This document shows positions 3,701 to 55,957 of a DNA stretch of 64,000 bases, piece after piece. The DNA comes from Anthoceros angustus. Its lineage: Eukaryota > Plantae > Anthocerotophyta. How positions within the stretch are numbered: the first letter of the stretch is position 1; the number at the start of each line of letters is the position of its first letter. The DNA lies in the NCBI GenBank assembly GCA_010909165.1, contig MU008195.1, positions 248,001 to 312,000 of the forward strand. The letters run 5' to 3'. Below the pieces are notes generated by a model. It was not told where the DNA came from and did not search any database. It saw nothing but the letters and a program-made list of their open reading frames with translations. The translations under genes were made by a program, and so were the position numbers.

Positions 3701-3917
3701 CAACTGTGAACATGCTTGGGGTCAACCCGCCCATGCCTCCAGTCAAAAAACCCTCCCGTGACCGGCCGGAAAGCGTGAGTAGGTGCGCCCGGCCCAGGCG
3801 CACGGATGGCATGCACTACGGTACATGCAGAATGGATGGTCCTTGTGCATGGGGATTACGATTTGATTTCCGTATGCACGCGTGGCAGGTACTATGGGTC
3901 AAAAAAACGTCATGTCC

Positions 3918-9900: not shown

Positions 9901-11007
9901 GAACTCCTATCCGCTGTCGGGTTCGGTGAAGTTAGCGGCGGGAAGATGGTCTAAGACAAGTTGTTTGTGCCGGTGGTCCTTGATGCGATTGGAATGCTTA
10001 GGCGTATGACCGTGCTCGTCGAGAGGCCTTCGCCGATCGATTCGGCCATTCTCGCTAGAGAGGCGATCCGTCGAGTGAAGAGGCCAAGCGTGTCCGCCAT
10101 TATGCTCATTTTGCCTTCATTACTCACGAGACACCGGTGAGCCACACAATCACGGGAGGCGAAGGCACCATATACATCCGCGCTTCACCAACGGTAAATA
10201 CCACATCACTTTTTCCGCCACTGAATTTTTCTTCATGGTGCCCTTCTTGAATCTTTTCAACCCACATTTCCAACACTTTTTGTCAGTTTCATGCTGGCCC
10301 CTATATAGCATGCAGCCCTTGGGGCACACGTCGATGCGTTGTGAACCTAGGCTTAGAGAAGCCATGATGGTTGAAGCTTGATCCTTCCCGGCAGGCATGG
10401 TATTTCCATCCGGTAATATAGATTGATGCAGCGCTTGTATGATAGCGTTCATGCCCGCATGGCTGATGCCGAACTGTGCCTGGATGTCAAACAGTAGCAT
10501 GGTGGCGGACAGGATACTGAGTTTTGCCCCAAGAAACAATGGCGTTTCTGCTGCTTGAACAATCTTCTCCATGGACCCGGGCTTATCACCTTCCACGCCG
10601 CAAAAGGACTCTTCCCCCACGGAGCGAGTCATCATTGTCACACCGGCATCATCGGAGAAATCACCGACCTCGTCCGTGGCGTGTCGGGATCCGCATGCAT
10701 GTTCTTGTTCCGGGTCGTCGCCGTCCACATCCTCATGCACATTGGCGACATGCACATCCATCAAGGTCGATGATGGTCCGCATGGATATGGGAGGGATGG
10801 GGTGCCCTCTCGACTTGCATCGACACCCTCACCCGGGTTAGCCGTGCCAACAGCCAGGTAGTCGCGGAAGCAGTGGTCTAATCCAACATCCGCGGGGACA
10901 CGTTTCCGTTTCTTACAAAATCGGCAAGGGCACCATATGACATGCCCGGCTATGCATTCCTCCATGCCTGCAGACACACGTGCCAAAGTGAGCGTGATAG
11001 AGCCCAC
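3918..11007 (-). mobile_element. CACTA/EnSpm Tnp2 transposase region (transposase-associated domain, Transposase_21, DUF4218, DUF4216), frameshifted and internally duplicated
   Basis: Motifs in order on the minus strand: CPCRFCKKRKR; IDVCPKGCMLY..CWKCGLKRF..KVMWYLPLVKR; RNLRFGLSTDGVNPF; NTITDYPGMGCLCG..GYMACHMC; FLPEDHPLRS; DGMHTLKNV; FFDIQVHMVVHLVDE..RWMYFIERYMKVLKDMVRNMAHPEACMVEGY; FCGRIQQILQL..VFKVKWY. No terminal inverted repeats identified. Confidence 0.92.
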
Positions 11008-14000
11008 ACAAATGATGACTCGCAGGACGCGCCCTTGTCAGTGGTATTGGAAGGAGAGGACAGAGTCCCAGGCGGACGGGCCGAGTTTGCGTCGCGATCG
11101 AAGGTTTGGTGCCGTGGAAGCACACAGGGGTACACGCGGCGCCGCGGCTGTCCGGATAGGCAGCTCCTTCAAACCCGCTGCAGCCCGCCCACAAGAACGA
11201 AAGCGGCTGGTGTTGTAGTGATCTCGACGGCCGCCATCGCGATGGCAGTTCTTCACGAAGACATGGCCACGCCGCCGCCTACACCTCTCAACGATGAAAA
11301 CTTTGGTTCCACGCTAGCCTTGTTGATCGCTCGTGTCCACTCGCAGAAATCACGTGAAGTATCTCTCATTCCAGTGTTGTCGTGCATTGCAATGTGGAAT
11401 CTTGAGCGATGGGCGGCATTCACGGTGGCGAGGGCGAGGCGGCCGCAGCAGCTCGGCATGCAACACAAAGCGTGGCGCCCGGCACAATGGGAGAGGGCGG
11501 GACAGGCGCAAGAGGAGCACGGGAGGGACCCGCAGTCCTCCCAGCGGCGTGGTCACCAGAACGAGAGCCGCGATGTTCGACTTAACCGCCACTGCCGGGA
11601 GTTCGGTGGGCCGCCCGCGCGCCGGGCCACGGTGGTAAGCACACGCCGGTAGAACTCCTATCCACCGGGTTCGGTGAAGTTAGCGGGAAGATGGTCTAAG
11701 ACAAGTTGTTTGTGCCGGTGGTCCTTGATGCGCTTGGAATGCTTAGAGCGGTGACCGTGCTCGTCGAGAGGCCTTCGCGATCGGTCCATTCTCGCTAGAG
11801 AGGCACCGATCGCAGTGAAGAGGCCAAGCGTCTGCGACTCATGGCGATCATCCGGGACCTTCGTGATTGTTGATGGCGGTGTGGGCGAGAAGTGCGGTGG
11901 TCCTTGATGCGCTTGGAATGCTTAGAGCAAGCGACGCGTCCGAGAGGCCTTCGCCGATGTGCCATTCTCGCTAGAGAGGCACCGATCCGCCGCGAGTGAA
12001 GAGGCTGCGACTCATGGCGATCATCCGGGACCTTACATGATTGTTGATGGCGGTGAGTGGGCGCGGCGTACCGGGCGACATTTATGTAGGCGAGCTCCTA
12101 TGCTGAAATTGTGTGTCATTGGGGGGTCCTGAGAGGTCTGCCCGCGATTGGCGCACCTAATTTGTCACCGTCCCTTGTTTGCCGCGAGGCAAAGTATGAA
12201 ATGGCAACACCACGCCTTTTTCTTTGTGCATTCTTATCGTTTGTGTTCCACGCCCGCAAACAGTCCCCAATGGCCCGTTCCAACCACTTGCACATGAAGC
12301 AGGCACTGTTCGTGAGAAGCACTCATCTTGCAGTGCCGAGCTGGCTCGCGGAGATCGGCAAAGTGAGGACCGAGTTTGTGAAACATCGCACGGGGACGGG
12401 GATGGAAAAGAAGCCTTCTGGCTAGGCGATGGATGTCATCCTCCCGATCATTGGTATGCACAAAACACATGAAGGCAGAATGACAACAGGGCGTGTCACG
12501 CCGCCCGCACCTGTCATATATCACGCCCTGTCAGGGCAGGCCAATGTACGATTTTGTACAGTCGCGCTCGGTGGGTCGTGCCAAGTGCGATGGAAAATTT
12601 CGCCGTTACGCACGCATGTAACATAGAGGCGAGGAACGGCGTGAAGTATCTCTCATTCCCAGTGTTGTCGTGCATTGCAATTGACGCAGGAATCTTGAAC
12701 GATGGAGCGGCATTCACGGTGGCGAGGGCGAGGAGGGCAGCCGCTCAACAGCTCCGGCATGCAACACAAGGCAGCGGCGCCGGCACAGTGGGAGAGGGCC
12801 GGGGACACCGGGCGCAACCCGAAGAGGAGCACACGGGAGGGACCACCGACAGTCCTCCCCGCGGGCGTGGTCACCAGGAACGCCGCCGGAGACGCGATGT
12901 TCCGGATGACTTCGCCCCAATCTGGCTGCCCGGGGAGTTCGAAGGCTGGGCCGCCCGCATTCTGGCACCGGAGCCCACGGTGGTAAGCACACGCCGGTAG
13001 AACTCCTATCCGCCGGGTTCGGAAGAAGCTGGGAAGATGGTCTAAGACAAGTTGTTTGTGCCGGTGGTCCTTGATGCTTGGAATGCTTAGAGCAAAGACG
13101 GCCGCGTTTGCCGAGAGCCGCCGATTCAGCCATTCTCGCTAGAGAGGCACTGATCCGCGCGAGTGAAGAGGCCAAGCGTCTGCGACTCATGGCGATCATC
13201 CGGGACCTTCTGTGACTGTTGATGGCGGTAGTGGGCAGAAGTGCGGCGCGCTGGCGACATTTATGTAGGCGAGCTCCTATGCTGAAATTGTGTGTCATTG
13301 GGGGGTCCTGAGAGGTCTGCCCGCGATTGGCGCACCAAATTTGTTACCGTCCCTTGTTTGCCGCGAGGCAAAGTATGAAATGGCAGCACCCTTTTCTTTG
13401 TGCATTCTTATCGTTGTGTTCCACGCCCGCAAATGTCCCCAATGGCCCGTTCCAACCACTTGCACACGGCGGTGCACTGCGAGAAGCACTCATCTTGCGG
13501 CCGTGGCTCATGGAGATCGGCAAAGTGAGGACCGAGTTTGTGAAACATCGACGGGGACGGGATGGAAAAGAAGCCTTGCTGGCGATGGATGTCATCCTCC
13601 CGATCATTGGTATGCACAAAACACATGAAGGCGAATGACAACAGGCGTGTCACGCCGCACTATCATATATCACCGTGGCGGGCCAATGTACGATTTTGTA
13701 CGCCGCTGGTCGTCGCGATCGAAAATGGAAAAGCCGCGCTGCACGCATGTAACATAGGGCGTGAACTGCTACTGTAGCCGCGCTGTGCACGGCCCAAAGT
13801 ATCTTCGACATCTTCGTGTTGCTTTCCTCTTCTGAGATTGCCGCGTCCGATGGCGTCCAGCAGCAGCGCTCCCAAAGTTCAGGAGGCGGAAGCCCATTCC
13901 ACTCCCCTGCCTCCTCCTCATGTTCAACTGTCGCCACGCATCGCAGCCATCTTCAAGCGAGAGCGGTGGAGTGGCCATGTCGAACCGCAGTCACCTGTCG

Positions 14001-17000
14001 CATCCCCTTGGAAGTGGAAGAAATCGATTACTCCGAAACCCGTTTCACAACACGCTGTTGGGCCCCATCCCTGAAACAGAGAAAAGGGAGGACACCCGCG
14101 CACTGGAGCAGCACGCCGTTTCCTGGGAGAAGAATGAGGCCCGACTCACTGAACTTGGTGCCCAGTATGCGAACATCAGCCCTGGCAGTATGGCGGGAGC
14201 ATCATATCTGGACATGATCAAGGCGGCTGTCGAATTCAAGCTGATTCTGCACCGCGAAATTATCCGAGCGGCTCCAAAGGCGAGGACTCTGTTCCAAATG
14301 GACATGAAGGTTGAGGTGGACCGGCGCCTGAAGGAGCTCACGCCGGTGTGTGGACAAGATCACGGATCGGTGATGCGCGGGTGGCGGGCATGGCGAAGAA
14401 GAGAACCCCCGGGTTCGCGGATAAAATGGGAAGGCTGCGAGAGGCGCCGGGTTCCTTGCTGCGGCGCTTGCTGCGCACCGGGAGTACCTTGTAGTGGTGG
14501 ATCGGGAGTGGCTTGTGAGCGTGCTTGGAAATGTGGACAACCTGCTCCATGCGCTGCGGCATGCGGGAGCTTGATTTTGCGGGGAGGCGCCGAACAACAT
14601 CTCGATGTCAATCTTCGTGGCCTGTTCCATTCAAACTTTGCTACTGTCTAATTTGCTTCCATTGCGAATTAAGTCCCAACGATGCGTTTATGCATGTTCG
14701 TTGCATGGTAGAGCAAAAGGGAAATCATTTCCCTGCAAAACAACGCAAATCGCACTCACGGCTTGTGAGGCCAAGGTTCAATGGCACTCAGTCTTTGCGA
14801 GGCAAACCTCCAATTGCAAGCAACGTGCCTTCTCTTATTTCTCGGGAAATGACCAATTGTCCTGCCCATCGAGGACACGCTAAAGCACAGGGTCTGCAAG
14901 CATAAGAAACCACTAGCTGCTCTGTTTTCGGCTTGCCAATACCCGGCCTGCATTGAGCATCCAGGCGCTTCACACTAGCTTGGCACAACACGAGCCAATA
15001 ATTCTTGGAAGGTCCCGGACGTGGACGGAGGGGCCGTTTCGGTAACGAGGGCCATTAGGCTTGTTCCCGGTGTAAGCTGTATGTGCAGGGTATCAGACAA
15101 GCCACGCGGTGTGGTTCGCCATGGGGCGAGATGACCGAATGTGGCAGCGCGCATCACAACTGAAACCAAACCTCGCATGGCGGCGCCCCTCCCGATCGGA
15201 CGCCCACGTTTTGTATGCCATGGAGCCGTGCAATGGGATTACCGATCGGGATGCGCGAAGTGGATATCCCCCGCGATCCGGACAGAGAGGTCAAGTGTTC
15301 GAAGCCGCCAAAGCTCATAAGTTGTTTCTTAAAGCAAAGTGGGTTCACTTGCACACCTGCGCGCGGAACAAGAAACTACTTTATCACTGTGGGTGATGGA
15401 GTGGTTCACCGCTAGGCCGCTGTGGGGAGGTTGCGTTCGAGCACCGGGCAAATGGTATACTGCATCTCAAGGCACAACACGAGCCAATAATTCTTGGAAG
15501 GTCCGGGGCGTGGGCGGAGGGGCGTTCGATAACGAGGCCATTAGGCTTGTTCCGGTGTGTATGTGCGGTGTATCGGACAAGCCGCGGTGGTTCGCCATGG
15601 GGCGAGATGACCGAATGTGGCGTGCATCACTGAAACCAAACCTCGCATGGCGCCCCCTCCGATCGGACGCCCGTTTTGTATGCCATGGAGCCGTGCAATG
15701 GGATTACCGATCGGGATCTGTGATGGATCGGGAGTGGCTTGTGAGCGTGCTTGGAAATGTGGACAACCCGCTCCATGCGCCGCGCATGCGGGAGCTTGAT
15801 TTTGGGAGGCGCTCAAAACAACATCTCGATGTCAATCGTGGGCCTGCTCCATTCAAACTTTGCTATCGCCTAATTTGCTTCCATTGCAATTAAGTCCCAA
15901 TGATGCGTTTATGCATGTTCGCTGCATTGTAGAGCAAAAGGAAATCATTTCCGCAAAACAACGCAAATCGCACTCACGGCTTGTGAGGCCAAGGTTCAAT
16001 GGCACTCGGTCTCTGCGAGGCAAACCTCCAATTGCAAGCAACGTGCCTTCACTTATTTCTGAAATGACCAATTGTCCCGCCCATCGAGGACACGCTAAAG
16101 CATGTGGTCCTGCAAGCATAAGAAACCACTAGCTGCTCTGTTTTCGGCTTGCCAATACCCAGCCTGCATTGAGCATCCAGGCGCTTCACACTAGCTTGGC
16201 ACAACACGAGCCAATAATTCTTGGAAGGTCCCGGACGTGGACGGAGGGGCCGTTGTTTTAGACCATTAGGCTTGTTCCCGGTGTAAGCTGTATGTGCAGG
16301 GTATCAGACAAGCCACGCGGTGTGGTTCGCCATGGGGCGAGATGACCGAATGTGGCGCATCACAATCGAAACCAAACCTCGATGAGGCGCGCCCGACGGA
16401 CCCCACGTTTTGTATGCCATGGAGCCGTGCAATGGGATTACCGATCGGGATGCGCGAAGTGGATATCCCCCGCGATCCGGACAGAGAGGTCAAGTGTTCG
16501 AAGCCGCCAAAGCTCATAAGTTGTTTCTTAAAGCAAAGTGGGTTCACTTGCACACCTGCGCGCGGAACAAGAAACTACTTTATCACTGTGGGTGATGGAG
16601 TGGTTCACCGCTAGGCCGTTGTGGGGGAGGTTGCAGGTTCGAGCACCGCAACAAGATACTCAAGGCACAACATATCATGGTACAGCATTTGACGTGGCTT
16701 AAGGGCACATAGGGGACACGCATAAGGCGGCTACGCGGCGAACAAGGAGATGACACAATCGGCGTGCCGGCTTTGGGTTAATTAACCGGGCACCATAGAG
16801 CACCCTTGCCCACACACCCTGAGCGTAAACGTGATTTTGTAACGCCTTTCCGCATCGTGAACGGGAATGTTACCCGACCGCTACTAAACCCCTTTCCGTT
16901 AGTGGCTGGTTAGTATTGCAACCTCGAAGAACGAGCACCCCGCACAGGAAGAGCCAGCCAGACGTGAACGCGATCGATCCATGATGTCGAGGAGGTGACA

Positions 17001-20000
17001 GCGAGACAGATGGAATGGCCTGACGGAGTGCGCGCGGCAGCTGCCCTGCGGCTCACATCGCACGGAACAAGACCACACCGCGATCGACCGCATCGAGCCC
17101 GCGAGTTTGTCCGCCAGCGATTGCCTTAGCCTGATAGCACCGTCACCGCCTTTCTCCTGCACCCTCACCACACAGCTATCCTCCAAGTCTAAGGTTAGTT
17201 GGACTTGCATAGGGCCTCTCATCATCAGGAGGTCTCAACATCCTTCTCTCAACAGTCACACCACATTGCCTGAGTACATTGCGTCGTTGTGCCATCTCAT
17301 TCTTCCTCGCCACACCAAAAATGCTTACAAAAGTAAGTTTGAGCATGGAGTGTGGCTTGAGGATTATGAAAAATTGGAGATGGCACAACAACGACTAGCA
17401 GCTCATCTTCACAACAAGATACTCAAGGCAACTAATGAATTATTGCGGCTTGCTGAGAGAAGGATGTTGGGACCTCATGATGATGATAGAGAGGCCCTTA
17501 TGCAAGTCCAACCAGAACCTTAGACTTGGAGGATGCCCCAAGCAACATGGGTGATGGAGTGGTTCACCGCTAGGCCGCTGTGGGGAGGTTGCGTTCGAGC
17601 ACCGCAACAAGATCTCGCATCTCCACAAGACAACACATGACATGTCGCCTGCACGACGTGGCTTAAGGGCACATAGGGACACGCCGCGGCTAAGGCGGCG
17701 TACGCGGGCGAGGAGATGACATCAAACCGCGTGCCGGCTTAAGTTAATTAACCGGGCACCATAGAGCACCCTTGCCCACACACCCTATGAGCCGTAAACG
17801 TGGGATTTTGTAACGCCTTTCCGCATCGTGAACGGGAATGTTACCCGACCGCTACTAAACCCCTTTCCGTTAGTGGCTGGTTAGTATTGCAACCTCGAAG
17901 AACGAGCACCCCGCACAGGAAGAGCCAGCCAGACGTGAACGCGATCGATCCATGATGTCGAGGAGGTGACAGCGAGACAGATGGAATGGCCTGACGGAGT
18001 GCGCGCGGCAGCTGCCCTGCGGCTCACATCGCACGGAACAAGACCACACCGCGATCGACCGCATCGAGCCCGCGAGTTTGTCCGCCAGCGATTGCCTTAG
18101 CCTGATAGCACCGTCACCGCCTTTCTCCTGCACCCTCACCACACAGCTATCCTCCAGTTCCTGGTTGACTGAGCGGGCTCTCATCATCAGGAGGTCTCAA
18201 CATCCTTCTCTCAACAGTCACACCACATTGCCTGAGTACATTGCGTCGTTGTGCCATCTCACCTTCATGGTCTTCGCCACACCAAAAATGCTTACAAAAG
18301 TAAGTTTGAGCATGGAGTGTGGCTTGAGGATTGCGAAAATTGGAGATGGCACAACAACGACTAGCAAGTACTTCATCTTCACAACAAGATACTCAAGGCA
18401 ACTAATGAATTATTGGCTCATCGAGAGAAGGATGTTGGGACCTCATGATGATGATAGAGAGGCCCTTATGCAAGTCCAACCAGAACCTTAGACTTGGAGG
18501 ATGCCCCAAGCAACATGGGTGAAGGAATTTCGTACCAGAGGGGAGCGAGTGAAGCGCTGATTGCTTATCAAGCCTAAGACAATCTTCGCGAACAAACTTC
18601 ACTTGGGCTCCAGTACCTGGTCCGTCCGCCATCCATTCTTGGTCTTGGTCTTTATTCCTCCGTGCATGAGTATGAAGGCCACCTTAGGAAGGTCTGTTGT
18701 TGTTGCACGTTTTCCTCTACTTGATCCTTCCATCAAGGTGATTCCACTATCTTCACTGTCTGGCCTGCCATACACTTGCCGTATACTCCTCACCATCCAG
18801 CATCATGGATCCGTCTCGTGCGTTCCTGTCTGGCAAGGCAACCAATTCTTCCTCTATTTGATGCAGGTTAGCAAAACATTCTTCAATTAACTCGAGGTTG
18901 GTATAAGACCAGTGCCTCCCATACACCCACTCCAGCTAGATGTTCTCCTCTGCTGCCCAGGGCCTAAAATCTGCAAGGTCCCTCGAGGACAGTTGACTTG
19001 CATAGCACGTGAATTGTGGCATGTCGAACTTCTATTTTCCGAGGGTCGCCTGTACCTCTTGCCTTAGACTTTTTATCCTTCCCTGTGCCATCTCCCCTGG
19101 TAGACGCCCCATCTTTGGCAGCCACCTCCTTGCCCTTGATCGTGGTTGGCTTAGTCATGGCTTCCTTGGTGAGTTCCTACACGAAATTGAGGAAAAGGGA
19201 TGCTTCGCCTGCAATTCCTGCACCACTTGCCAGCTTCCTACCACGGTAGGCGTTTTTCCTTCTCAACAACTCGCACCTGCTCACCTTGCCTAGGACCTTG
19301 CTCTTGTCCTCAAGCACTTAGCCCTTACACCTTGGCTCTTCCAACCCCAACTCCTCTTGTTGTGAGTTTCAAGAGAAATCCTGCATTAACTACCCCACAG
19401 ACTCTTATACTGGCCACAGCAATTTGGCAGCTCTCCCTTCACGATTTCCTTGCAATCCTGCCACGCTCCACCCTCCTGGGCACCCTCATGAGCTTGGCAA
19501 GTGTTGGGTTTCGCCACAACCTTCCTCTTCGTCCTCTTCTTCTCCTTTTCTTCCTGCTCTTCCTCTTGGCCGCTGCTTTCCTCCTTGTCGCTCACGCCTC
19601 CTTCTCCAGCCTCAAGACAAAGTGTGTACGGCAGGATGTTGTCTTGGGGCCTTGTGACCCCCGCGATGAGGCGACGCCTCAGGTGGACTGCCTCGGTTTC
19701 CGAGGTCTCAGACACCGCAAATACTTTTATAGATCACCCAAGTTTAGAAGAAGTAACTACCATTCTACCACCCTTGGATGTGTGCCACGTGGCACCTTTC
19801 CCACCTAGTTTCCTATTTCCCTTATACTAAAATACCATTTTCCCTTATTTTCCTATTTCCTATTTACTGAAAATTAGCCTCAAATCTCCTCATTACCTAT
19901 TTTGGCCTATTTATCTAGTCCACTAAAGGACCCTATATATAGCAAGCCTATCCTGCCTCCTAAGACATAGGCTTCCTTCCTTAGCAACCCATTTCCCACC

Positions 20001-20240
20001 GTGATAGGACACCCTCCTACCATGGTAGGAGTTTTTCCTCTTTTCCTACCACTACCGTAGTCTCTCCTACCCTTCTCCTACCATGGTAGGAGCTATTCCT
20101 ACACTGATAGGTGATCAAAGCACTAGCAAGGTCATTGGATATGCCAAAATTTACATGCTTTGCAGGTCAAGTATCTTCAAGGTTGCATATCATACACCAT
20201 CTACCACGGTAGGAGAAAAGACCCAAGGTTGCTCGCCAGC

Positions 20241-20600
20241 AAGACGGAATGAGGCTAGAAATGAGCCGGCCAGACGTGGCAAGACGGGTTGAAGATAGAA
20301 ATCAGCCGGCCAGACGCGGCAAGACGGGTTGAAGCTAGAAATCAGCCGGCCAGACGCGGCAAGACGGGCTGAAGCTAGAAATCAGCCGGCCAGACGCGGC
20401 AAGACGGGCTGAAGCTAGAAATCTGCCGGCCAGACGCGGCAAGACGGGCTGAAGTTAGAAATCTGCCGGCCAGACGCGGCAAGACGGGTTGAAGCTAGAA
20501 ATCTGCCGGCCAGACGCGACAAGACGGGCTGAAGCTAGAAATCTGCCGGCCAGACGCGGCAAGACGGGCTGAAGCTAAAGATCTGCTAGCCACACGCGGG
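20241..20600. repeat. 40-bp minisatellite, about 9 units (AAGACGGGYTGAAGCTAGAAATCWGCCGGCCAGACGCGGC)
   Basis: Units start exactly every 40 nt from 20241 to 20561, with no spacers. Confidence 0.95.
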
Positions 20601-21733: not shown

Positions 21734-23530
21734 TCAAACAGACCCACAGGAGCAGACGCCATCCACAAAATGATGCACACGATGTGCATCCCTTACTATG
21801 ATCTCCCGCCTCTCATATCTAGACATGGCCTTGGTACCGTTGTGGCAGTCACTGCACATCCGAAGGTTCTTGGTAACCCGCAGCGTTGTGCCATCGGGAG
21901 TGTTCAGTAAACCATAGGCAAGAGCGAGTTTTTCAGCATGTCCGCACAATGCACTTTCCCTTTCACTCGAATCTGGCTCCATGAGGCATTCCTCCATCTG
22001 CACATTGATGCTCGTCAGCTTGCACGAAGTATCATCCCTCTCTTCGCCCACAACGAAGGAGTGCACTTTGCTGTTCACTTCAATCCAGGCCCTTGCAGGC
22101 TTCTTACAAGCTCCTGCACACTTTCTCAGCATTTCTATTCTGTTCGCATCCCCCCACAAGCCCGCATTCGCATACATACTTCCCAGCAGCAGATATGCAC
22201 TAGCATTTTGAGGCTCTTGTTCAATCAAGCGCTCAAAACAGCGCCTACCGCGCTCTATGTCACCAAAGCTGTTGCACGAGCTGAGCAAGGATGTCCACCC
22301 CACACTATCGCTCTCAATTGGCATGGTTAGCAGAAAGCTCTCTGCCTCTTGCAGGCAGCCTGAGCGCCCAAGAAGATCTACCATGCAAGTGTAGTGTTGT
22401 GCAGAGGGTGGGATACAATACTCTTCCACCATAGTTTTGAAAATTTGTTTGCCCTCATTCACCAAACCCTCTTGACTGCAAGCCATAAGAAGGCAAGTGA
22501 ATGTGGCATCGTTAGGCGCCACCCCATGTAACTGCATCTCTTGGAAGCAGTCTAACGCTAGTTTGCCACGATTATGTTGGGCATAGCCATGAAGAAGGGC
22601 AGTCCATGCCACAACATCTCTGGTGGGCAAGCTGTCAAACACTTTGCGAGCATCATCTAAACTCCCACATTTTGCATACATGTTCACCAGGCTACTCCCA
22701 ACAAGCACATCACCTTCAAGCCCAATTTTTTCGATGTTCGCATGAAGCTGCTTTCCCTGGCACAATGCTCCGACACTGGCACATGCATTCAGCAGGCACA
22801 AGATAGTAACGTGATTCCCTACGTTGATGCCTTGATCCTGCATACCTGAATACAAATCAAGAGCCTCTTCACCAAGCCCTTGCCGAGCATACCCTGCAAG
22901 CATAGCATTCCAAGTCACCACATCCCGGATTGCCAGGCTGTCAAAGACTCTGCGAGCCTCATTTAAGCTTCCACATTTTGCATACATGTCCACCAAGCAG
23001 TTGCCAACAAACAAATTGAGCTCGGTAGCAAGCCCCAAAGCATCAGCATGGACCTTCTTGCCACCTGCCAAATCCAATGCCGTGGCACACGCTTTAAGGA
23101 CAGCAACAAATACATGGTTGTCTGGCTTCACACTAGACTGTCGCATCTGTTCGTACAGCTTAATAGCCTGAGAAGGGAATCCATGATCAACATGTGACAA
23201 GATGATGGACGCCCACATGAATTTGTCTGGTGCAGCCAGTTTGCTAAAAACATGTGTTGCTTCCTCCAGCTTCCCATGAGAAGCATACATGCAGATGATG
23301 TGGTTAGCTAAGAATTTATTACATTCATACCCACTTGCAAGAGTAAGAGAATGAACACGCTTGCCAAAACCCACAATCTTGCACTCAGTGCACCTTTTGA
23401 GGACATAATACAAGAGTGATGCAGGGACATACACTCCTAGCTGCACCAGGAGGTCCAACTCTTGCATGACCTCACCCAGCTGTCCCTCGTCACTTGCAAA
23501 CTCGTAGGGCCCTTGTTGAACTCCCCACTC
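21734..23530 (-). CDS. PLS-class PPR protein with E1/E2 and DYW:KP-type deaminase-like domain (putative U-to-C RNA-editing factor); terminal exon of a CRL-PPR chimeric gene
   Basis: 577-aa ORF with ~11 P/L/S motifs (e.g. VVTWNAMLAGYARQG, LVDMYAKCGSLNEARRVFD), E1/E2, then KPARAWIEVNSKVHSF, HAEKLALAYGLLNTP..KNLRMCSDCH..HHFVDGVCSCGSV. The frame is open 21 codons further upstream (EWGVQQGPYEFASDEGQLGEV) to a TTTCTAG acceptor at 23531. Confidence 0.93.
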   Translation of the reverse strand, partial: EWGVQQGPYEFASDEGQLGEVMQELDLLVQLGVYVPASLLYYVLKRCTECKIVGFGKRVHSLTLASGYECNKFLANHIICMYASHGKLEEATHVFSKLAAPDKFMWASIILSHVDHGFPSQAIKLYEQMRQSSVKPDNHVFVAVLKACATALDLAGGKKVHADALGLATELNLFVGNCLVDMYAKCGSLNEARRVFDSLAIRDVVTWNAMLAGYARQGLGEEALDLYSGMQDQGINVGNHVTILCLLNACASVGALCQGKQLHANIEKIGLEGDVLVGSSLVNMYAKCGSLDDARKVFDSLPTRDVVAWTALLHGYAQHNRGKLALDCFQEMQLHGVAPNDATFTCLLMACSQEGLVNEGKQIFKTMVEEYCIPPSAQHYTCMVDLLGRSGCLQEAESFLLTMPIESDSVGWTSLLSSCNSFGDIERGRRCFERLIEQEPQNASAYLLLGSMYANAGLWGDANRIEMLRKCAGACKKPARAWIEVNSKVHSFVVGEERDDTSCKLTSINVQMEECLMEPDSSERESALCGHAEKLALAYGLLNTPDGTTLRVTKNLRMCSDCHNGTKAMSRYERREIIVRDAHRVHHFVDGVCSCGSV

Positions 23531-23685
23531 CTAGAAATCACAAGAAGCCAGGCCAGACGTCAAACACTTGTGACAGACAATTACAAATGAACAAGGACTC
23601 ACACGGACACTTCAGATGAAGTTTCCAAATGCGATTGCCTTCTGTACAGAAAGGTAAAACTTAGATCTTGGCAAATGGTTGATAC

Positions 23686-24787
23686 CTGCTGATAGGGCCG
23701 GTCAGGTGATCTCCAAAAGGCCTGGAACGTGGGTGCCACAGGGAGTATGAATCATGGCAAACTGCATACAACCCAGCTCATAAAAAACTCTAACAAAATA
23801 ACGATCACTGAGATGCAGATACAGAGAAGCACATATCGCAGACTCTGCACTGCAGATGTTACAAGATCTCATTGTCACCTGTTCTAAGTACAAAACTCTG
23901 GCTCCATCAGCAAGGACAGGTGCTGGACAAGTGAGTAACCTGCAAGTTAGTGGTTAGGTTGAGAACCAAAGTTCTGAAAATATATTCTGCACTGACAGGT
24001 GTCACTTGCTCCAACTGAAGCACAATAGATTATGTAAACTACCAGCTAGCAAGTACGTGAAAGTCAAAAAAGACAGAAAACGGTGACACATGCTTACCGA
24101 ACATTGAAATAAGTCATTGGAGCCCGAGCAGCCTGACCCGGAGAAAACTGCAAGCCAAAGCGCGACGGCACAGGTAAGCTGGCATAGACCTCATTTAACC
24201 TTCAAAGAACGACCCTCCGACCAGCAGAAAAACATGATGGCTCGACACAATGTTAAAGCTCTCGGCATCTCCAATCACATGCTCACGAGACAGCTAAATT
24301 GGACACAAATTTAGGCGTAGATTTGTCTACGCCTAAATCCAATGACTCCCTAACCCTGTGAGCAGACCACATTTCACTTTAGAGAAAAAGGGATGATTGC
24401 AGGTACCTCCGCAAAATGCTTCCCCATTTTGAACGAGCTTGAGTGTAAACCTAACGTACAATCGGAGCGCAGAACGGATGTCCAGGACGCCCCGAGCTTG
24501 CATTCGATACTACACGATGAAGCACCGGGAGCCCCAGCACCATCCAAGCAGATTGATGACATATTCGGCCATAAAGGCCAGGAAACACGGATGTGCTCCC
24601 ACCGGGAGGTGATTTTGGTGAGCCTACGGATCAGAAACGCGCCACCTAAGAGGCACACAGCCTTGACCACTAAACTGCGTACCATACGCCCGCTGTTGTG
24701 GTGGAGCGGGCCTCCACCTCCGACATCCCCCGACGGACCGCCTTCAAGACTGCCAGTGCCGGACGGCGTAGGCCTGTCACAGACCAT
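23686..24787 (-). CDS. CRL-derived 5' exons of the chimeric gene: exon 1 from ATG 24787; 24147-24098; 23939-23879; 23721-23686
   Basis: Exons read MVCDRPTPSG..RSLVVKAVCLLGGAFLIRRLTKITSRWEH / FSPGQAARAPMTYFNVR / LLTCPAPVLADGARVLYLEQ / AFWRSPDRPYQQ. Exons 2-4 have the same lengths (50, 61, 36 nt) and GT-AG borders as CRL exons 2-4 at 36730-37204. The exon 1 donor is uncertain. Confidence 0.7.
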
Positions 24788-24872
24788 CTTGGCGCATCTG
24801 ATGGCAGCTGCTCGCAACCTGGATCCTACTACCGCAGCTACAATGTCCAGCCCCCTCTTACATTCCTGGCCG

Positions 24873-27800
24873 CAACCCGGTTCAGGCCACTGCCAATTGC
24901 GTCCGCGTCACGCAGACGCCTCACCCCGCTGCCTACACTGCGACATTAACCGGGACGGCCTACACCGGTTTGCACTTGGTCGACCAGAAGGCCATGTACA
25001 GCAACAAGCAGACAACAGGATGAGAGCATACGCAGGTAAAAGGGGCGCACACAAAAAGGCCATTTCGGACGTTCCATTGATTTCTGTCCACGCACAGCTT
25101 CTACAATTCGCCCCACCGCCCTACAGACCCTGCAGCCTCCATGCAGTCTGGTCTCTTCTGCGCTGCAAATTCACATAGCCGGCAGAACTAGCTGGAGGAG
25201 GAATAGGGGCAGGCAATGAATTGCGATGGACTAACATCATACATGGATACAACAGGCTCATGTTTGTTATGTCTCCATTGCCCTTTGTTATGTTAGTCTT
25301 CTGCTATGTTGGTTTATTTCATTTTCGTCTTTGGTGTTAGTCTAGCATGCGATTCTTGAACATCAGTCTCTCATACGGCAATAATGCCCGTTTGTAAACC
25401 TGGATAAATACCTAGTACCTAATCCCTGGATGTAATTGAATGACCTTCTGTTATGTGTGCTGTAGTTGGGGTGTCTCCTAGTTTTTAGACACCCCTAGGC
25501 TGGGTGGCCTGGCCTCCATGTTTGCTGCTCCTCAGCCCGCTCAGGCTCTATGTATTTTTTGTATATATTTATATAAAGCCTGGTTTCTTTAAACAAATAA
25601 TCAGTCTCTCATGTCATAATAATGCTCGTTTGTAAACTTAGATAAATAGTAATACTCCCGAGATGTAATTGAATGACCTATTTGTATTGAATGTCCCTGT
25701 CTCAGGATAAATGAATCTCGAATTCGGATGATTATGAGCCAGGATCCACGAAGCCTGGAGCTCTTTATCATCTATTATTTTTAGGGAAAATTAGTTTTTA
25801 GTTTTCGTCATCGAAACCAGGCTCGGGTTCCTATTGCAGTCTGGGCTCATATGCGGAGCTCTTCATCATCTATTATTTTTAGGGAAAATTAGTTTTTAGT
25901 TTTCGTCATTGAAACCAAGCTCGGGTTCCTATTGCGGTCTGGGCTCATGTGCGGAACCGTCCCTTTGCAGAGTCATGTCCTCAGACATATTCAAAACATG
26001 AGGTCACGCCTCTTTGCACAGTCATGTCCTCAAACATATTCAAATGTTCTAAGACATAATTAAAACATAATAGGGACAAAGGCTGAACTCATCCTCTAGG
26101 TATGGTACTTTGTTGGCTATTAGTTTAATTTTTTTGGTAATCTTCTTTATTGACATCCAAACCCAACACCATCTTCTAGTGACAAGATCTAGTTTCAATG
26201 GTATGGGTCGTTTCTCATAAACCATGAGTAACCACATTGGCAATAGCAGGTCATAGGTCATATGCTTCTTCATGTAGCATGGTGTCATCAACCCCCCATG
26301 CTCGCTGCTTCTCCTTATCAGAGGTGCTTCATCCATGACGGATTGTGAAATGGTAAATCAAGCACTTATATCGTTATTCTTGTACATAGATGTTTGCTCT
26401 CTATGTGTTCTCAATCCTTTTTGGTTGAGAAAGAGTTGTTTGCAATTCCTTGCACCTGTCCAAAGTCGGAGAAATCCTTAAACAGTCGCACAAAATCGGT
26501 GATTCCATTGAAACATGTTGTTGGGCATAAGTCAATAGACTTTCCCATCACCATATCCAAAGAAAAGCCTCTTAGAAAAACATGTACGTTTTGCGGTGTA
26601 TTGAACATATGTAGTGTCCAATATTCGACGGTAGCGCACTAGGACGTGGCAAAATTTAATCACGCCTTTGAATTCATTCCTTCAAAACTCCATAAAATGT
26701 CGGGACTATCATCATGGATGCGTTTGAACTTGCGCCCAACACGCCGTTCTTATTAGGTGACCCAATCTACAAACAAAGTTGAACATGATAGAGATAAGAC
26801 GAAGGACATCACTAGGTGTCCAAAGCATGAGAAGTCGGCTTCAACCCGGTTCAGGCCACTGCCAATTGCGTCCGCGTCACGCAGACGCCTCACCCCGCTG
26901 CCTACACTGCGACATTAACCGGGACGGCCTACACCGGTTTGCACTTGGTCGACCAGAAGGCCATGTACAGCAACAAGCAGACAACAGGATGAGAGCATAC
27001 GCAGGTAAAAGGGGCGCACACAAAAAGGCCATTTCGGACGTTCCATTGATTTCTGTCCACGCACAGCTTCTACAATTCGCCCCACCGCCCTACAGACCCT
27101 GCAGCCTCCATGCAGTCTGGTCTCTTCTGCGCTGCAAATTCACATAGCCGGCAGAACTAGCTGGAGGAGGAATAGGGGCAGGCACGAATTGCGATGGACT
27201 AACATCATACATGGATACAACAGGCTTGCGTTTGTTATGTCTCCATTGCCCTTTGTTATGTTAGTCTTCTGCTATGTTGGTTTATTTCATTTTCGTCTTT
27301 GGTGTTAGTCTAGCATGCGATTCTTGAACATCAGTCTCTCATACGGCAATAATGCCCGTTTGTAAACCTGGATAAATACCTAGTACCTAATCCCTGGATG
27401 TAATTGAATGACCTTCTGTTATGTGTGCTGTAGTTGGGGTGTCTCCTAGTTTTTAGACACCCCTAGGCTGGGTGGCCTGGCCTCCATGTTTGCTGCCCTC
27501 AGCCCGCTCAGGCTCTATGTATTTTTGTATATATTTATATAAAGCCTGGTTTCTTTAAACAAATAATCAGTCTCTCATGTCATAATAATGCTCGTTTGTA
27601 AACTTAGATAAATAGTAATACTCCCGAGATGTAATTGAATGACCTATTTGTATTGAATGTCCCTGTCTCAGGATAAATGAATCCTCGACCCGGATGATTA
27701 TGAGCCAGGATCCACGAAGCCTGGAGCTCTTTATCATCTATTATTTTTAGGGAAAATTAGTTTTTAGTTTTCGTCATCGAAACCAGGCTCGGGTTCCTAT

Positions 27801-28805
27801 TGCAGTCTGGGCTCATATGCGGAGCTCTTCATCATCTATTATTTTTAGGAAAATTAGTTTTAGTTTTCGTCATTGAAACCAAGCTCGGTTCCTATTGCGA
27901 TGGGCTCATGTGCGAACTGCCCTTTGCATGTCACCCTTTATATTCAAAACATGAGGTCACGCCTTTGCATGTACATGTCCTCAAACATATTCAAATGTTC
28001 TAAGACATAATTAAAACATAATAGGGACAAAGGTCGAACTCATCCTCTAGGTATGGTACTTTGTTGGCTATTAGTTTAATTTTTTGGTAATCTTCTTTAT
28101 TGACATCCAAACCCAACACCATCTTCTAGTGACAAGATCTAGTTTCAATGGTATGGGTCGCTTTCATAAACCATGAGTAACCACATTGAAGTGTGTCATA
28201 GGTCATATGCTTCTTCATGTAGCATGGTGTCATCAACCCCCCATGCTCGCTGCTTCTCCTTATCAGAGGTGCTTCATCCATGACGGATTGTGAAATGGTA
28301 AATCAAGCACTTATATCGTTATTCTTGTACATAGATGTTTGCTCTCTATGTGTTCTCAATCCTTTTTGGTTGAGAAAGAGTTGTTTGCAATTCCTTGCAC
28401 CTGTCCAAAGTCGGAGAAATCCTTAAACAGAGTCCGCACAAAATCGGCTGATTCCATTGAAACATGTTGTTGGGCATAAGTCAATAGACTTTCCCATCAC
28501 CATATCCAAAGAAAAGCCTGTCTTAGAAAAACATGTACGTTTTTGCAGGTATTGAACATATGTAGTGTCCAATATTCGACGGTAGCGCACTAGGACGTGG
28601 CAAAATTTAATCACGTCTTTGAATTCATTCCTTCAAAACTCCATAAAATGTGCGGGGACTATCACTGTTGGATGCGTTTGAACTTGCGTCCAACACGCCG
28701 TTCTTATTAGGTGACCCAATCTACAAACAAAGTTGAACATGATAGAGATAAGACGAAGGACATCACTAGGTGTCCAAAGCATGAGAAGCTGGCAGCTTCA
28801 ACCAG
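24873..28805. repeat. ~1.97-kb tandem duplication (24873-26841 / 26842-~28805)
   Basis: CAACCCGGTTCAGGCCACTGCC recurs at 24873 and 26842, and the following ~2 kb is repeated with few differences. Confidence 0.9.
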
Positions 28806-29021
28806 GGTTGGGACATAGATCAAAAGCCCACGGAATCTTTTGTTCCGTGTAGGGTTTCCATACAAATTTCTTACAAAAATTTCCACACAGCCTCCATTCC
28901 ACATCTCTCGATTTGGAGAACTGTCTATTAATCCTACATACCTTGCCCATCTATTTTTGCTGGAATTGGGGTGTATATCACCCTCTGTCCTCCCCCCCAC
29001 CTCCCCCCACCTGGAATGACG

Positions 29022-29843
29022 TCATGGTGTACAAGTGCTTGGCTGACATGTATGGGAAGGTGTACGACAATACCAATAGGGTTTTCCGGTGTTGACATAG
29101 TCGAAGCCACTAAAATCCATTTCCATGGACACTGGCCTTCTCGTCATGTTACACTCGAACCTATCCACCTCCAATATGAAGAAAGTGACGTCTCCTTCCT
29201 CGCACGCGATATCCAGTATATCCCGAATCTGGCCGAAAAAATCTTGTCCTTGCGGGTGGCCCTCCATGGTAAAATTGCAATAAACCCAACTATCACATGT
29301 GGACCGTTGGTTTTCGTCCCCCTGCTTGGTACAAAAGTGATACGCGTGAGCCTCGTGACCGCAGTATGACGTGACCTGCATAAGCGGGCCATATGATAAG
29401 GCCCTGATGACAGAGGCATGTTCCTTCACATCGAACCCACTGGCGCGAGCCATTAATTTCATCCCACACAGGTGCGACTTCCTTGGGTGTATGGCGGTCA
29501 TATACTCGGAAGCATAGTGCATGGCCTCCATAGCTAAATAACCTGCTACCATGCTCCCTTCCGGGTGGACTCTTTGGTGAACATGGTTTTTAAGGACTTG
29601 CATGTATCTTTTAATTGGATACATCTACCGACATTGTATTGTACCATGTGTCTCAACTTTGTCAACGAGTTGTATTATGATATGTTGCATGATATTCCAG
29701 AATATAGACGGCATATGGCATTTCAGGTCGACGACCGCATCAATAGCTTCTTGTTTTTTCCTTGGTACGTGTGGCGCGACTTTCGCTGATGGCCAGCCGG
29801 GCGCGCACAATCCCGTGTCGTTGTAGTAAGGGGTTCGTTCCAC
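29022..29843 (-). mobile_element. Second, decayed CACTA/EnSpm Tnp2 remnant (DUF4218/DUF4216 region), a different family from the first
   Basis: FWNIMQHIIIQLVDKVETHGTIQCR*MYPIKRYMQVLKNHVHQRVHPEGSMVAGYLAMEAMHYASEY and FFGQIRDILDI. There is an in-frame stop at the conserved W position. Confidence 0.85.
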
Positions 29844-34000: not shown

Positions 34001-35981
34001 ATAGAAGCCACCCTGGATGCTAGGATTCCAAGTTGGCTATCGATATCATTGGGTATGTGGCAGCCAGCTCAAGTTCCATCCAAGTCTTTGCATGCGCAGC
34101 AGAAGCACTAGCTCATTCCTGTAAGAGAAAGCCAAGATAGGGTGGCGGATAAAGAGACGCCTGTAATGACAAGGTTGTGTACTGACGAAGGAGTTTGGGG
34201 ACACACAAGGGACAAGGACCAGCTGGCCTACTTGAGGGAGATAGGAGGCCTACTTAAGGGGGGATTGGGGGTTGGAGGGGTGAGGTCTTCTTGCTAGCAC
34301 AGGTGAATGGGCTGGGAAGAAGAATTTGCTAATCAATCTCCAACAAAGTTGAGGATGTGAGGTATTATGTCTTGAATCATGTACCCTAAAATTCAATTGG
34401 ACATATTATATAATTACTACTACGATGATCTCTATGAAAGTCTCACGCAAAAGCCAGTAATTAAAGGACTTTTAAAAGGGGCCAAAGGAGGAACAAGCCA
34501 TGCACAAAAGAGAAAGGAAGGGGAGTGTTATTTTCTACTATAGCATTGTGGTTTTAGTGTGGAATGTGCATGTGTGGATTTTCACCAAGGAACAGTGCGT
34601 TAACGTTGAAGACTTTGCATAAAAAGACAGGTTGTGGGGAAATAAGAAAGCCAAGAGCTTGTTGGTCTAGTGCACTCACATGAGGTGTGTCAATTGTGAA
34701 GAGGGATAGATGAAATCTGCTTTCTTTGGCCGATAGCCTAGAACGTAGAGTGCATTCTTAAGATAAGTGAAGGCTGAGCAAGTAGGGAATCGTTATCAAG
34801 ATAGAGGAATTGTGTAGCGGGAGCTCGCTCTCGCCAATCTAAAGGGGTCACCTAGTCTGACTAGTTCGTGGATAAGGGGAAGGACCCTCAAAGTCCTACA
34901 TTAAGCGGGACTACATTAATATTGTCAAGCTCCTATTTCGTTTCTAAAGACTACCAGTGACTATTGAAGGTAGCCACTTTGGGTTATTCTTCCACAAAAT
35001 CTGTTTGTAGCCTCAGCAGTTGTGTATTAATTTTAGTCATTTTGAAAGAGATGTGCTCAATAATTGTGATCCCCATTACCCATATGTGAGTGTAATGACT
35101 AAGTTGACCGTGGTCGAACTGATGTCCTACAAGTCGAGCATTGGAGGGACCTTCATTTTTACTTGACCTGTATTGAGGTGATCAAGCATTACGTAGGCAA
35201 TGGATTGTATCTCAGTTTATCATCATATGTGGTATTCACAAAAGTCTAGAAGCAAGAGTTTGTTGACCCTAACCCTCTAGAGCATCACTAAGGAGTCTAG
35301 TCACTTAGCTGTAGAGGGTGTGTGTAGGCCCTTACTCATGTGTGTAGGCCCTTACTCATAATTGTCTTTTTTATAGTGGTTGTAAACAACCTATAGATGT
35401 AGGCCTTTACTCATAATTATCTTTTTTACAGTGGTTGTAAACAATCATGGATTTTCCTCGACGACCTACTTTCTCTATTGTGCTACTATGTGCTGAAAAT
35501 TTTGTCGGAATAAAATGAAAAGAAACGTGCCATGCACCTATTGCTTAGACTTGTTTTAGTGTACTCACCTTGCTCTTCATTGGTTTAGGCCTTTCTTTCC
35601 TTTCCCCCAATCCAAAAAACACAGGCTTCGTTTCATGGCAGGTACAGACCTAGGAAGCAACAAACATTAGGCATATTTAATCAAACGTCCGAAATGGCCT
35701 ATGGTGTGAGCCCCATTTACCTACGTATGTATGCGCTCATGGCGTTGTCTGCTTCCTGCTGTACCATCGCCTTCTGTGGCGGTCAAGTGCAACCCAAAAT
35801 CTGATGCGCGTCTTCCCGGCTAATTTCACAGTGCAGGCAGCAGGGTGAGGCGTCTGCGTGACGCGGACGTAATTGGCCGTGGCCTGTATCGGGTTGCGGC
35901 CAGGAATGTAAGAGGGGGCTGGACATTGTAGCTGCGGTAGTAGGATCCACGTCGTGAGCAGCTGCCATCAGATGCGCGAAG

Positions 35982-38239
35982 ATGGTTGGTGACAGGCCCA
36001 CACCGTCCGGCAACGGCAGTTTTGAAGCCGGTCCGTCGGGGGATGGTGGAGATGGAGGCCCGCTCCACCACAATGGCGGGCGTATGGTGCGCAGTTTGGT
36101 GCTCAAGGCGGTGTGCCTCCTAGGTGGTGCGTTTTTGATCCGCAGGCTTACCAAGACCACCACCCGGTGGGAGCACACGCGCATTGTTGCCCAGGCCCTG
36201 AGCGGGGAAAAGGTTGGTTCCTCGCCATTATGGCCGAACGTTTCATCAATCTGCTTGGATGGGTCTGGGGTTCCCGGTCCTTCTTTGTGTAGGGTCGAAT
36301 GCATGCTCGCGGCGTCCCAGACATCCGTTCTGCGGTCGATTGTACATTAGGTCTAAACTCAAGCTCGTTGAGAATGGCGAAGGCGGTACCTGCAATCGTC
36401 CTTTTTCTCTTCTGTGAAACGTGGTGTGCTCACAGGGTTGGGGAACCATTGGATTTAGGCGTAGACGATTCATGGGTTTGTGTCAATTGAGCTCTCTCAT
36501 GAGAGTGTGATGGGAGATATGCCTCCTCTTCGTGAGTAAGCATCGCTCTGCTCCTAGGTTCTCTTGCACTGGTTTTACGAGTATGACTCCCAGGGTTAGC
36601 ACAGCACAGTGAACTAAAGTGACAGACTCCTACAGGGCTTCATTCAATGGTCAGCAGCAATTGCGTCGCAGAGAGCTGAAATTGGTCTTCTGCACTTACT
36701 CACCTGGAATGTCGCCCGTTTTCTTGCAGTTTTCTACAGGTCAGGCAGCTCGGGATCCAATGACTTACTTCAACCTTCGGTAAGCATTTGGCACAGTCGT
36801 TGGTCGTTTTCGGGTCTTTCATGTTCTTGACCGCTGGTAATTTACATGCCTCTATGTCTATTGTGCTTGAACTGGAGCAAGTAAACACCTGTCAGTGCAA
36901 ATTATGTTGTCAAGGTTGTGATTCTCATCCTACCCTAACTTGCAGGTTACTTACTTGTCCAGCAACTGTTCTTGCTGATGGAGCCAGAGTGTTGTACTTC
37001 GAACAGGTGACTTTGATTATTTGCACTATTTTGTGACATCTGAATGCAGCATCTGCTATTAGTGCTTTTCTGTCTGCATCTAGCGGTCGATATTTTGTTG
37101 GAGTTTTTATGAGTTGGGTGGTATGCTGTTTGCTATCATTCATACTCCCTGTGTCATTCATGTTTTAGGCCTTTTGGAGAACACCTGAACGGCCCTACCG
37201 GCAGGTAGCAATCTTGTACCAAGAAAAAATTGTTGATCTATTTAGAGACATCTAGGGTTGATACAGGAAGTCAGATGTGCTAGGTCTTCTGGGCTAAGAA
37301 GTACCTTATACTGACTGTTTGATCCAGAGGTTCTACTTGGTCAAGCCCTGCCCAAAGGAAATGAAGTGCGACGTGGAGGTAGGTGCATGTTTTGTTTGGA
37401 AACTTTTGCCTCGTGGGTATGCACATCGAAGGAGCACTTTTCTCACAAGCTTGTGCAGCTTGGTTGAGGTTAGCTCAATGTTAAGAATCTGATCAGGAGC
37501 TGGGCTTGGAAATACAGGTGGCTTCATACGCTGTGAGGGATATTGAAGAATACAGGAACTTCTGTGACCGACCCAAAAATCAGCGGCCTCAGCCAGAGGA
37601 AATTGTTGGGGTATTAAGTCGTGCTATAGTTCTCCTCAAACCAATGTTGCACAGTTGGAGCTTGAACGCATGTTGTCAGCCATAGAGAGTTTTCAGGGGC
37701 AATTTCTCAATCCATGGTTTTTATGATCGAACTTGCAGGATATGGCTGAACATCTTACTACAGTTTACCTGTCTCATTGTGAGCGGGGCCGACGCTGCCT
37801 GTACGAAGGATCGACTCCACCTGGTGGATTTCCAAATTCATGGGTACAACATTATCTGATACAACCTCTTGGGATGTGGTCAAGTGTGTACTTCTGGCGG
37901 CCGTGTTATAGCTGTGTGGATGTATGTGGCAGAATGGTGCCACTCGCTGCACATCAGAATTGACAATCTATAGGAACGGGGAGATACATTGCTGGGATCG
38001 TGCGTATGATGATGAGGGCAATCAGGTTCGTACGTTTCATCACAATTTTGAAGAGGTCTCTTCTGTCTGTCAAGCCTTCACAAGTGTATGACATCTTGCC
38101 TGCATGTTGTGAATTCTAGGTTTGGGGAGTTCGACAAGGGCCTTACGAGTTCAAGCCTGCGTCTTCCTCTTGTCCAACGGGGTCATACTACAACAACGAC
38201 CTGGAAGACAAGTCCTCCGCAGTCACTCTGACGACTTGA
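35982..38239 (+). CDS. CRL: CRUMPLED LEAF, CpcT/CpeT-family chromophore-lyase-like plastid envelope protein, 279 aa, 9 exons
   Basis: Exons 35982-36212, 36730-36779, 36946-37006, 37169-37204, 37328-37378, 37518-37610, 37739-37843, 37933-38025, 38120-38239, all GT-AG, total 840 nt. Translation: LVLKAVCLLGGAFLIRRLTKTTTRWEHTRIVAQALSGEKFSTGQAARDPMTYFNLR..AFWRTPERPYRQRFYLVKPCPKEMKCDVE..YEGSTPPGGFPNSWNGA..VWGVRQGPYEFKP, matching Arabidopsis CRL as I recall it. Confidence 0.93.
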
Positions 38240-55814: not shown

Positions 55815-55914
55815 AGCCGAGAAGAGACGAGGAGAGGCGAAGAGAAGAGAAGAGAAGAGAACAAAAGAGAGGAGAAGACGGGAGAAGAGAACAGAAGGAA
55901 GGAGAGGAGGAGGG
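55815..55914 (+). repeat. Purine-rich (GAGAA-like) low-complexity tract in the SHMT 5' leader
   Basis: GAGAAGAGAAGAGAAGAGAAGAGAACAAAAGAGAGGAGAAG... directly upstream of the ATG. Confidence 0.7.
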
Positions 55915-55957
55915 TTTGCATTTTGTGAGGGACGGAACGGGTGAGTTGCTGTGGTGG

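Follow-up and report, generated by a model that had tools for sequence, protein, structure and literature searches.

What becomes of an organellar RNA editing factor when its own targeting region is lost and the front part of an envelope protein takes its place? The question is raised by a locus of the hornwort Anthoceros angustus (assembly GCA_010909165.1, contig MU008195.1, positions 248,001 to 312,000 of the forward strand; this whole stretch of 64,000 nucleotides is the window, and all coordinates refer to it). On the minus strand between 25073 and 21734, a partial copy of the gene CRUMPLED LEAF (CRL) runs in frame into an intronless coding sequence for a PLS-type pentatricopeptide repeat (PPR) protein with a DYW:KP deaminase domain. 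The fusion is present in the assembly as a true structure and, judged from its sequence, the chimeric gene is probably functional. In the reading that we favour, at a probability of roughly 0.4, a spliced transcript would encode a protein of 774 residues, of which the CRL-derived span would be anchored in the plastid outer envelope and the PPR-DYW part would face the cytosol.

The CRL copy and its junction with the PPR frame

The parental CRL gene (35982..38239, plus strand) is intact, with nine exons and 279 codons. It was recognised by homology to the hornwort CRL protein P0128 (labelled Nothoceros aenigmaticus in its source), with which 243 of the 279 residues are identical, and P0128 itself matches Arabidopsis CRL, PDB 6LIX. 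The family is that of CpcT/CpeT (Pfam PF06206; structure 6LIX). Self-comparison of the window and alignment identify minus-strand 23499-25073 as an inverted paralog of 35684-38151 (+), in line with the earlier note on this DNA, which had placed such a paralog at 23500-25075. The two align by blastn in three minus-strand blocks (24267-25073, 23666-24166 and 23499-23573) at 78-85% identity, a similarity that is far above chance and in which substitutions outnumber indels, in contrast to the adjoining tandem duplicate with its clustered errors.

The copy retains about 290 bp 5' of the start codon, exon 1, exons 2-4 and the first 11 codons of exon 9; the duplication of promoter or leader sequence along with the exons, proposed earlier, is borne out by the alignment. 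The outer part of the upstream sequence (24926..25073, minus strand, as are all features of the copy) is homologous to 35684-35843 and represents promoter or 5' leader. The inner part, a leader of 138 bp directly before the start (24788-24925, corresponding to 35844-35981 on the plus strand), is 94% identical to that of CRL, with eight mismatches and no gaps, and is better kept than the coding exons. It contains a donor-like site at 24924, a minimal upstream open reading frame (uORF) of AUG and stop at -76, a six-codon uORF that overlaps the start, and predicted hairpins, and it may serve hornwort CRL as an element of translational control. Rfam gave no matches in the window between 20000 and 39000.

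Exon 1 (24587..24787, start codon at 24787) includes the membrane-anchor segment, residues 34-58 (24614..24688). Exons 2, 3 and 4 (24098..24147, 23879..23939 and 23686..23721) align with CRL at identical lengths of 50, 61 and 36 nt; as had been described, their GT/AG sites are kept and they hold no stops, and they are free of indels as well. CRL exons 5-8 were not found in the copy by tblastn. The earlier suggestion that they had been deleted within a hybrid intron (23531..23685) is confirmed: the 5' end of this intron resembles CRL intron 4 over 20 nt, its 3' end resembles intron 8, and between them about 12 nt of the end of exon 8 remain, with the exon-8 donor destroyed (local score 58, against a maximum of 35 in shuffled sequence). 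The last exon opens with the 11 codons of CRL exon 9 (23498..23530), passes the junction at about 23498 and continues without a stop, again as noted before, so that the whole frame spans 598 codons.

One part of the earlier description, an intact exon 1, did not hold. A 33-bp deletion has removed the last codons of exon 1 together with the donor of intron 1, and because of this loss the 774-residue form requires a cryptic donor at 24406, a condition that had gone unstated when a fusion of that length was first suggested. We gave each GT a crude score from the energy with which it pairs to splice-site RNA; by this score the sequence GAG/GTACCT at 24406 is the best donor downstream of the deletion (-5.7, against -5.3 to -11.5 for the eight donors of CRL). 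Two higher-scoring sites lie within exon 1 of the copy, upstream of the deletion, and CRL has similar ones. The donor at 24406 is in phase 0, and the preceding 180 nt of former intron-1 sequence (24407..24586) are free of stops in this frame only, as are 8% of shuffled sequences; the same frame of intron 1 in CRL hits a stop. Splicing at 24406, which we infer, would include 60 residues of former intron, whereas use of the weak donor at 24586 would give 714 residues. The 60 exonised codons differ from CRL by 7 synonymous and 19 non-synonymous changes, so that no constraint on their amino acids is apparent.

The PPR array and the DYW:KP domain

Pfam finds PPR, E and DYW families in the 598-codon frame. 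The motif parse of the intronless part at 22106..23497 reads L1-S1-P1-L1-S1-P1-L1-S1-P2-L2-S2-E1-E2, that is, 11 PPR motifs followed by E1 and E2. It does not start directly in the repeats, as had been thought, but with a helix preceding the first L1 motif, as in hornwort-type PLS proteins. Among the matches listed (120 of the 234 PPR homologues), the closest relatives are 50-63% identical across the first 200 residues and share this helix, whereas the sequence N-terminal of it is variable; the fusion point therefore lies roughly at the place where the end of a targeting region would be expected. The native organellar presequence is absent, and the CRL-derived membrane anchor stands in its place, with a separate presequence possible further upstream.

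The DYW:KP domain (21734..22105, 123 residues) was assigned by alignment, tree and fold. It has KKPA, with KP in place of the PG box, and HAE in place of HSE, and the xHP motif is absent. In a tree of the window sequence and those 53 of the 120 listed homologues that have a recognisable DYW end (54 C-termini), it falls in a clade of 13 rows together with proteins ending in DRH and GRP (support 100/99), on a branch of length 0.35, similar to those of the other members. DRH and GRP mark hornwort KP variants, and DYW:KP proteins are candidate organellar U-to-C editing factors (PMC9478123, PMC11845758). The zinc ligands (HxE...CxxC), the catalytic Glu, the ligands of the second zinc and CxxCH are kept and align to H892, E894 and the cysteines of OTP86. 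A lysine aligns to OTP86 K915, and from this alignment it is taken to be the equivalent of Lys88, needed for U-to-C editing (PMC11845758).

The domain is not complete. Its gating region lacks about 10 residues at OTP86 867-875, the base of the gating finger, which goes beyond the three to four residues absent from most KP domains (PMC7611903), and its C-terminus, GSV, is one residue short, leaving neither a complete gating domain nor a complete C-terminal triplet. Because of these two losses catalysis is probably weak or altered. The frame is closed by two consecutive stops (21734-21739), the first of which possibly arose by a recent nonsense mutation in the last codon of the DYW triplet. Modelled with 41 homologues, the DYW core reaches a mean predicted local distance difference test score (pLDDT) of 90, lowest at the deleted gating region, and matches DYW structures; a fold of the single sequence left the domain unresolved. 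Two proteins of the same clade, P0015 and P0064, have shorter, independent-looking gating gaps and non-standard ends, which suggests that gating erosion recurs in this clade.

Where the fusion protein would act

The editor anchored at the plastid surface would have arisen in a few steps. The first would have been a duplication of CRL that left an inverted copy at a distance of 10.6 kb. A PPR-DYW:KP coding sequence, already deprived of its own targeting region, would have been joined in frame within CRL exon 9; deletion would have removed exons 5-8 along with the donor of exon 1, and a new phase-0 donor would have taken over. The CRL leader would supply expression and the anchor location, the broken CpcT pieces and the 60 residues of former intron would serve as a spacer, and the target of the 11-motif array would be one RNA sequence, bound at the plastid surface. 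Arabidopsis CRL has been reported to have its N-terminus within the intermembrane space, with the membrane span after it and then the lyase domain. For that reason the editor would face the cytosol: if the fusion were inserted like Arabidopsis CRL, everything after residue 58 would be on that side. The surface tethering suggested in the earlier note agrees with this topology. Catalysis there is possible, because an N-terminally tagged moss PPR-DYW protein edits cytosolic RNA in tobacco cells (PMC13656186).

Support for this reading comes from the pattern of selection. Pairwise comparison of the copy with CRL over 126 codons, the check that the earlier note had asked for, gives synonymous (dS) and non-synonymous (dN) rates of 0.33 and 0.083 and a dN/dS of 0.25 (95% confidence interval 0.13-0.46), a value that pools the branches of both genes. 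The 378 bp of CRL-derived exon, leaving aside the 33-bp deletion at the exon-1 border, contain no internal indel, whereas 18 occur in the aligned non-coding DNA (663 bp), each of them of frameshifting length (none a multiple of three). Under neutrality throughout, 5.1 exon indels would be expected (p 0.006), and 2.3-3.1 if the copy had been neutral for half of its branch. The copy has the N-terminal membrane span of the CRL/CpcT family, with hydropathy equal to that of CRL (1.96 versus 1.94) and with its paired glycines kept; in Arabidopsis CRL, the change G31D within the span is hypomorphic. The anchor residues 34-58 show 9 synonymous and 1 amino-acid-changing codon, versus 13 and 20 elsewhere (Fisher p=0.009). 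CpG loss in the copy is not in excess (3 versus 5). Altogether, selection is seen to have held the reading frame and the membrane anchor while the CpcT remnants drift, the pattern expected of a translated anchor with a dispensable spacer behind it, and not of a pseudogene or a mere leader. That it is the anchor in particular which has been conserved suggests an editor located at a membrane surface. The proposal that a PPR protein captured the leader and membrane segment of a CRL duplicate thus stands as regards the kept frame and the conserved anchor, and is qualified by the need for a cryptic donor and by an atypical deaminase.

A number of observations weigh against such an editor. The boundaries of the anchor segment were set post hoc, and some of its synonymous changes belong to the CRL branch. 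With P0128 as outgroup, 17 of the 21 amino-acid differences fall on the branch of the copy (two on that of CRL, two ambiguous), and exons 2-4 of the copy are altered at otherwise near-invariant CRL sites. The low pairwise ratio is therefore only part of the picture: on the branch of the copy dN/dS comes to about 0.45-0.6, which is not securely lower than 1 (Fisher p from 0.003 to 0.39 across the range tried), and if this branch was half neutral, the absence of exon indels alone gives p 0.05-0.10. Out-of-frame donors at 24354 and 23602, the latter weaker and within the hybrid intron, would compete with those required. Furthermore, OTP86 without its gating finger edits markedly less and its terminal Trp is essential (PMC7611903), so that the DYW domain of the fusion may have no activity. 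Editing in the cytosol can reach more than 1500 off-targets (PMC13656186), a load that should be costly, although a damped deaminase would limit the harm. Finally, no second CRL-PPR fusion was found by blast: the 107 representatives that match the N-terminal part of CRL are at most 334 residues long and none is PPR-like, many of them being single-exon read-throughs, among which spliced fusions could be missed. CRL sequence was present in none of the PPR matches listed (120 of 234), and such negatives are weak in protein collections that hold few spliced hornwort proteins.

The alternative that survives best, unlikely though we consider it, is that the protein is imported and acts as an ordinary U-to-C factor in the stroma or the mitochondrial matrix, the usual reason for a DYW:KP frame to stay intact. 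Delivery would be by the CRL-derived N-terminus or by an additional presequence starting at ATG 25063, in the outer upstream block. This ATG is found in the copy only and starts an open stretch of 51 codons, in frame with the CRL start; its first 46 codons, hydrophobic and then rich in Arg, Ser and Pro, without acidic residues, precede the strong donor at 24924, downstream of which five acceptors are in frame, as a 5' intron would require. As to the CRL-derived N-terminus, the earlier note had treated it as a plastid- or membrane-targeting sequence. It proves to be a membrane anchor preceded by acidic, Gly-rich residues (1-35) that do not resemble a transit peptide, and the best-conserved part, the span, would tend to stop transfer.

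We regard it as rather unlikely that the locus is decaying, i.e. that the copy was constrained as a full paralog and later relaxed, with the PPR frame in phase by chance and little or no function left. The ratio on the branch of the copy, the changes at conserved CRL residues, the deletions of the donor and of the gating region, the shortened C-terminus, the CACTA-type transposase remnants nearby and the lack of orthologues of the fusion in the protein collections searched would all suit this view. Even with a half-neutral branch, however, the joint chance of zero indels, preserved splice sites and start, an in-frame junction and an open extension in phase is in the order of 1e-4 (a rough, post hoc product). 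Moreover, the anchor is specifically conserved, the CpGs have not decayed, and the DYW branch is as long as those of other members of its clade.

Improbable, too, is a role of the CRL part as mere promoter and 5' leader, with translation of an un- or weakly targeted PPR protein from an internal Met (codon 22 in the last exon). No stretch of the copy is better conserved than the leader, out-of-frame donors are present, and this Met is in frame and a short way into the PPR part; but a mere leader would be expected to accept indels and to lack the synonymous excess seen in the anchor, and the Met sits within the conserved pre-PPR helix. That the assembly is chimeric at the CRL/PPR junction is very improbable, since a misjoin in frame within the last exon is unlikely and the differences between copy and CRL are biologically patterned (synonymous excess, indels confined to non-coding DNA), although several tandem duplicates in the window, including one that abuts the leader of the copy, have their substitutions and indels in clusters, which suggests imperfectly polished long reads.

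We return to the envelope-anchored editor and to what it would mean. The PPR-DYW editors of plants are regarded as working in plastids and mitochondria alone. A more far-reaching version, in which an ungated DYW:KP deaminase sits on the cytosolic side of the plastid and binds and edits mRNAs of nuclear genes close to the import machinery, would make this the first native plant PPR editor outside the organelles; we consider it distinctly doubtful. If the anchoring is real, the exchange of a presequence for an envelope anchor would be a natural test of whether KP editors can act in the cytosol, and the fusion could reveal what deletion of the gating region does to U-to-C chemistry. Hornworts are transformable. 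Even if the protein is stromal, the locus demonstrates the stepwise gain of promoters and addresses in the large PPR family of hornworts, with duplication, exon loss, donor loss and intron exonisation on display and selection left only on the frame and the anchor.

Precedents and surrounding sequence

How the PPR frame reached the CRL copy may be compared with known systems. An intronless inserted coding sequence is joined to the exons of another gene, as in chimeric retrogenes, among them jingwei of Drosophila and cases in plants, where an intronless coding sequence acquired the 5' exons and promoter of another gene (PMC5470649). Unlike in jingwei-type retrogenes, what is donated here is a membrane anchor and what receives it is an organellar RNA editor, and retroposition is only a possibility. 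A retroposed origin is plausible because the expansion of PPR genes in hornworts is reportedly driven by retroposition (PMC13386178); the window does not contain the parent gene of the PPR frame, no poly-A tract was found in the 440 nt after the PPR stop, and a target-site duplication is not evident.

The editing part resembles the hornwort DYW:KP PLS-PPR proteins of the DRH/GRP type (PMC9478123, PMC11845758) in its PLS-E1-E2-DYW architecture, KP box, HAE, missing xHP and Lys88. It differs from them in having the CRL anchor and CpcT remnants for a presequence, in the loss of about 10 more gating residues and in a C-terminus that is one residue short. As of PMC11845758, activity had been demonstrated for no natural DYW:KP protein. 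With CRL the fusion shares leader, start, span, exons 2-4 and the 11 codons of exon 9, at an identity of about 83% to the gene nearby, but its remnants drift and it cannot be a CRL, because about half of the lyase domain (exons 5-8) is gone and no complete CpcT domain is left.

Natural fusions of PPR proteins with RRM, MORF and OZ domains (PMC13386178) likewise join a foreign domain to PPR or DYW, including one RRM-DYW case in hornworts; their partners, however, are editosome domains, and CpcT has no occurrences in the main text of that paper. The engineered cytosolic PPR56, a PPR-DYW protein with a large N-terminal fusion that edits cytosolic RNA in plants, is comparable as well, but it is artificial, soluble and of the C-to-U type (PMC13656186). 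No such fusion was found in a literature search on DYW or PPR proteins together with CRUMPLED LEAF, CpcT or the outer envelope, which had the founding KP papers outside its scope. The locus hence combines a known gene-making route with a known protein family, and this combination is not found described in the literature searched.

Further searches for relatives added little. Exon 1 of the copy had no matches to longer proteins, in a search that also missed the hornwort CRL P0128. A protein atlas held nothing usable for the extended exon 1 and, for the N-terminal part of CRL, only CRL clusters of 239-373 residues with scores below 0.9. A metagenome scan left one locus from 595 pattern matches, a 14-residue match in the opposite context that was judged to be chance.

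The window contains several other features. A direct tandem repeat (24873-26845 and 26842-28806) of about 2 kb is 96% identical, with 54 substitutions and 18 indels that are tightly clustered, which points to probable long-read assembly noise rather than divergence; a hairpin was considered and rejected, since the copies are direct. The repeat duplicates the upstream block of the CRL copy at 26842-27042. Between the copy and CRL lies a DUF4218 transposase remnant (29022-29624, minus strand). Several tandem duplicates of 1-2 kb with 84-92% identity, many gaps and CACTA-type pieces (Transposase_21, DUF4218) occupy 3900-18500, and a tandem array with a period of 40 bp is found at 20239-20599, about 1.1 kb downstream of the PPR stop. 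Beyond CRL, the minus strand carries a KNOX gene (40727-41233), an AMPK1_CBM carbohydrate-binding protein (43647-44171), a copia gag remnant (48965-49384) and a DUF2470/CREG-type protein (61989-62834). On the plus strand, a serine hydroxymethyltransferase exon (55811-57613) is preceded in frame by about 270 residues of low complexity.

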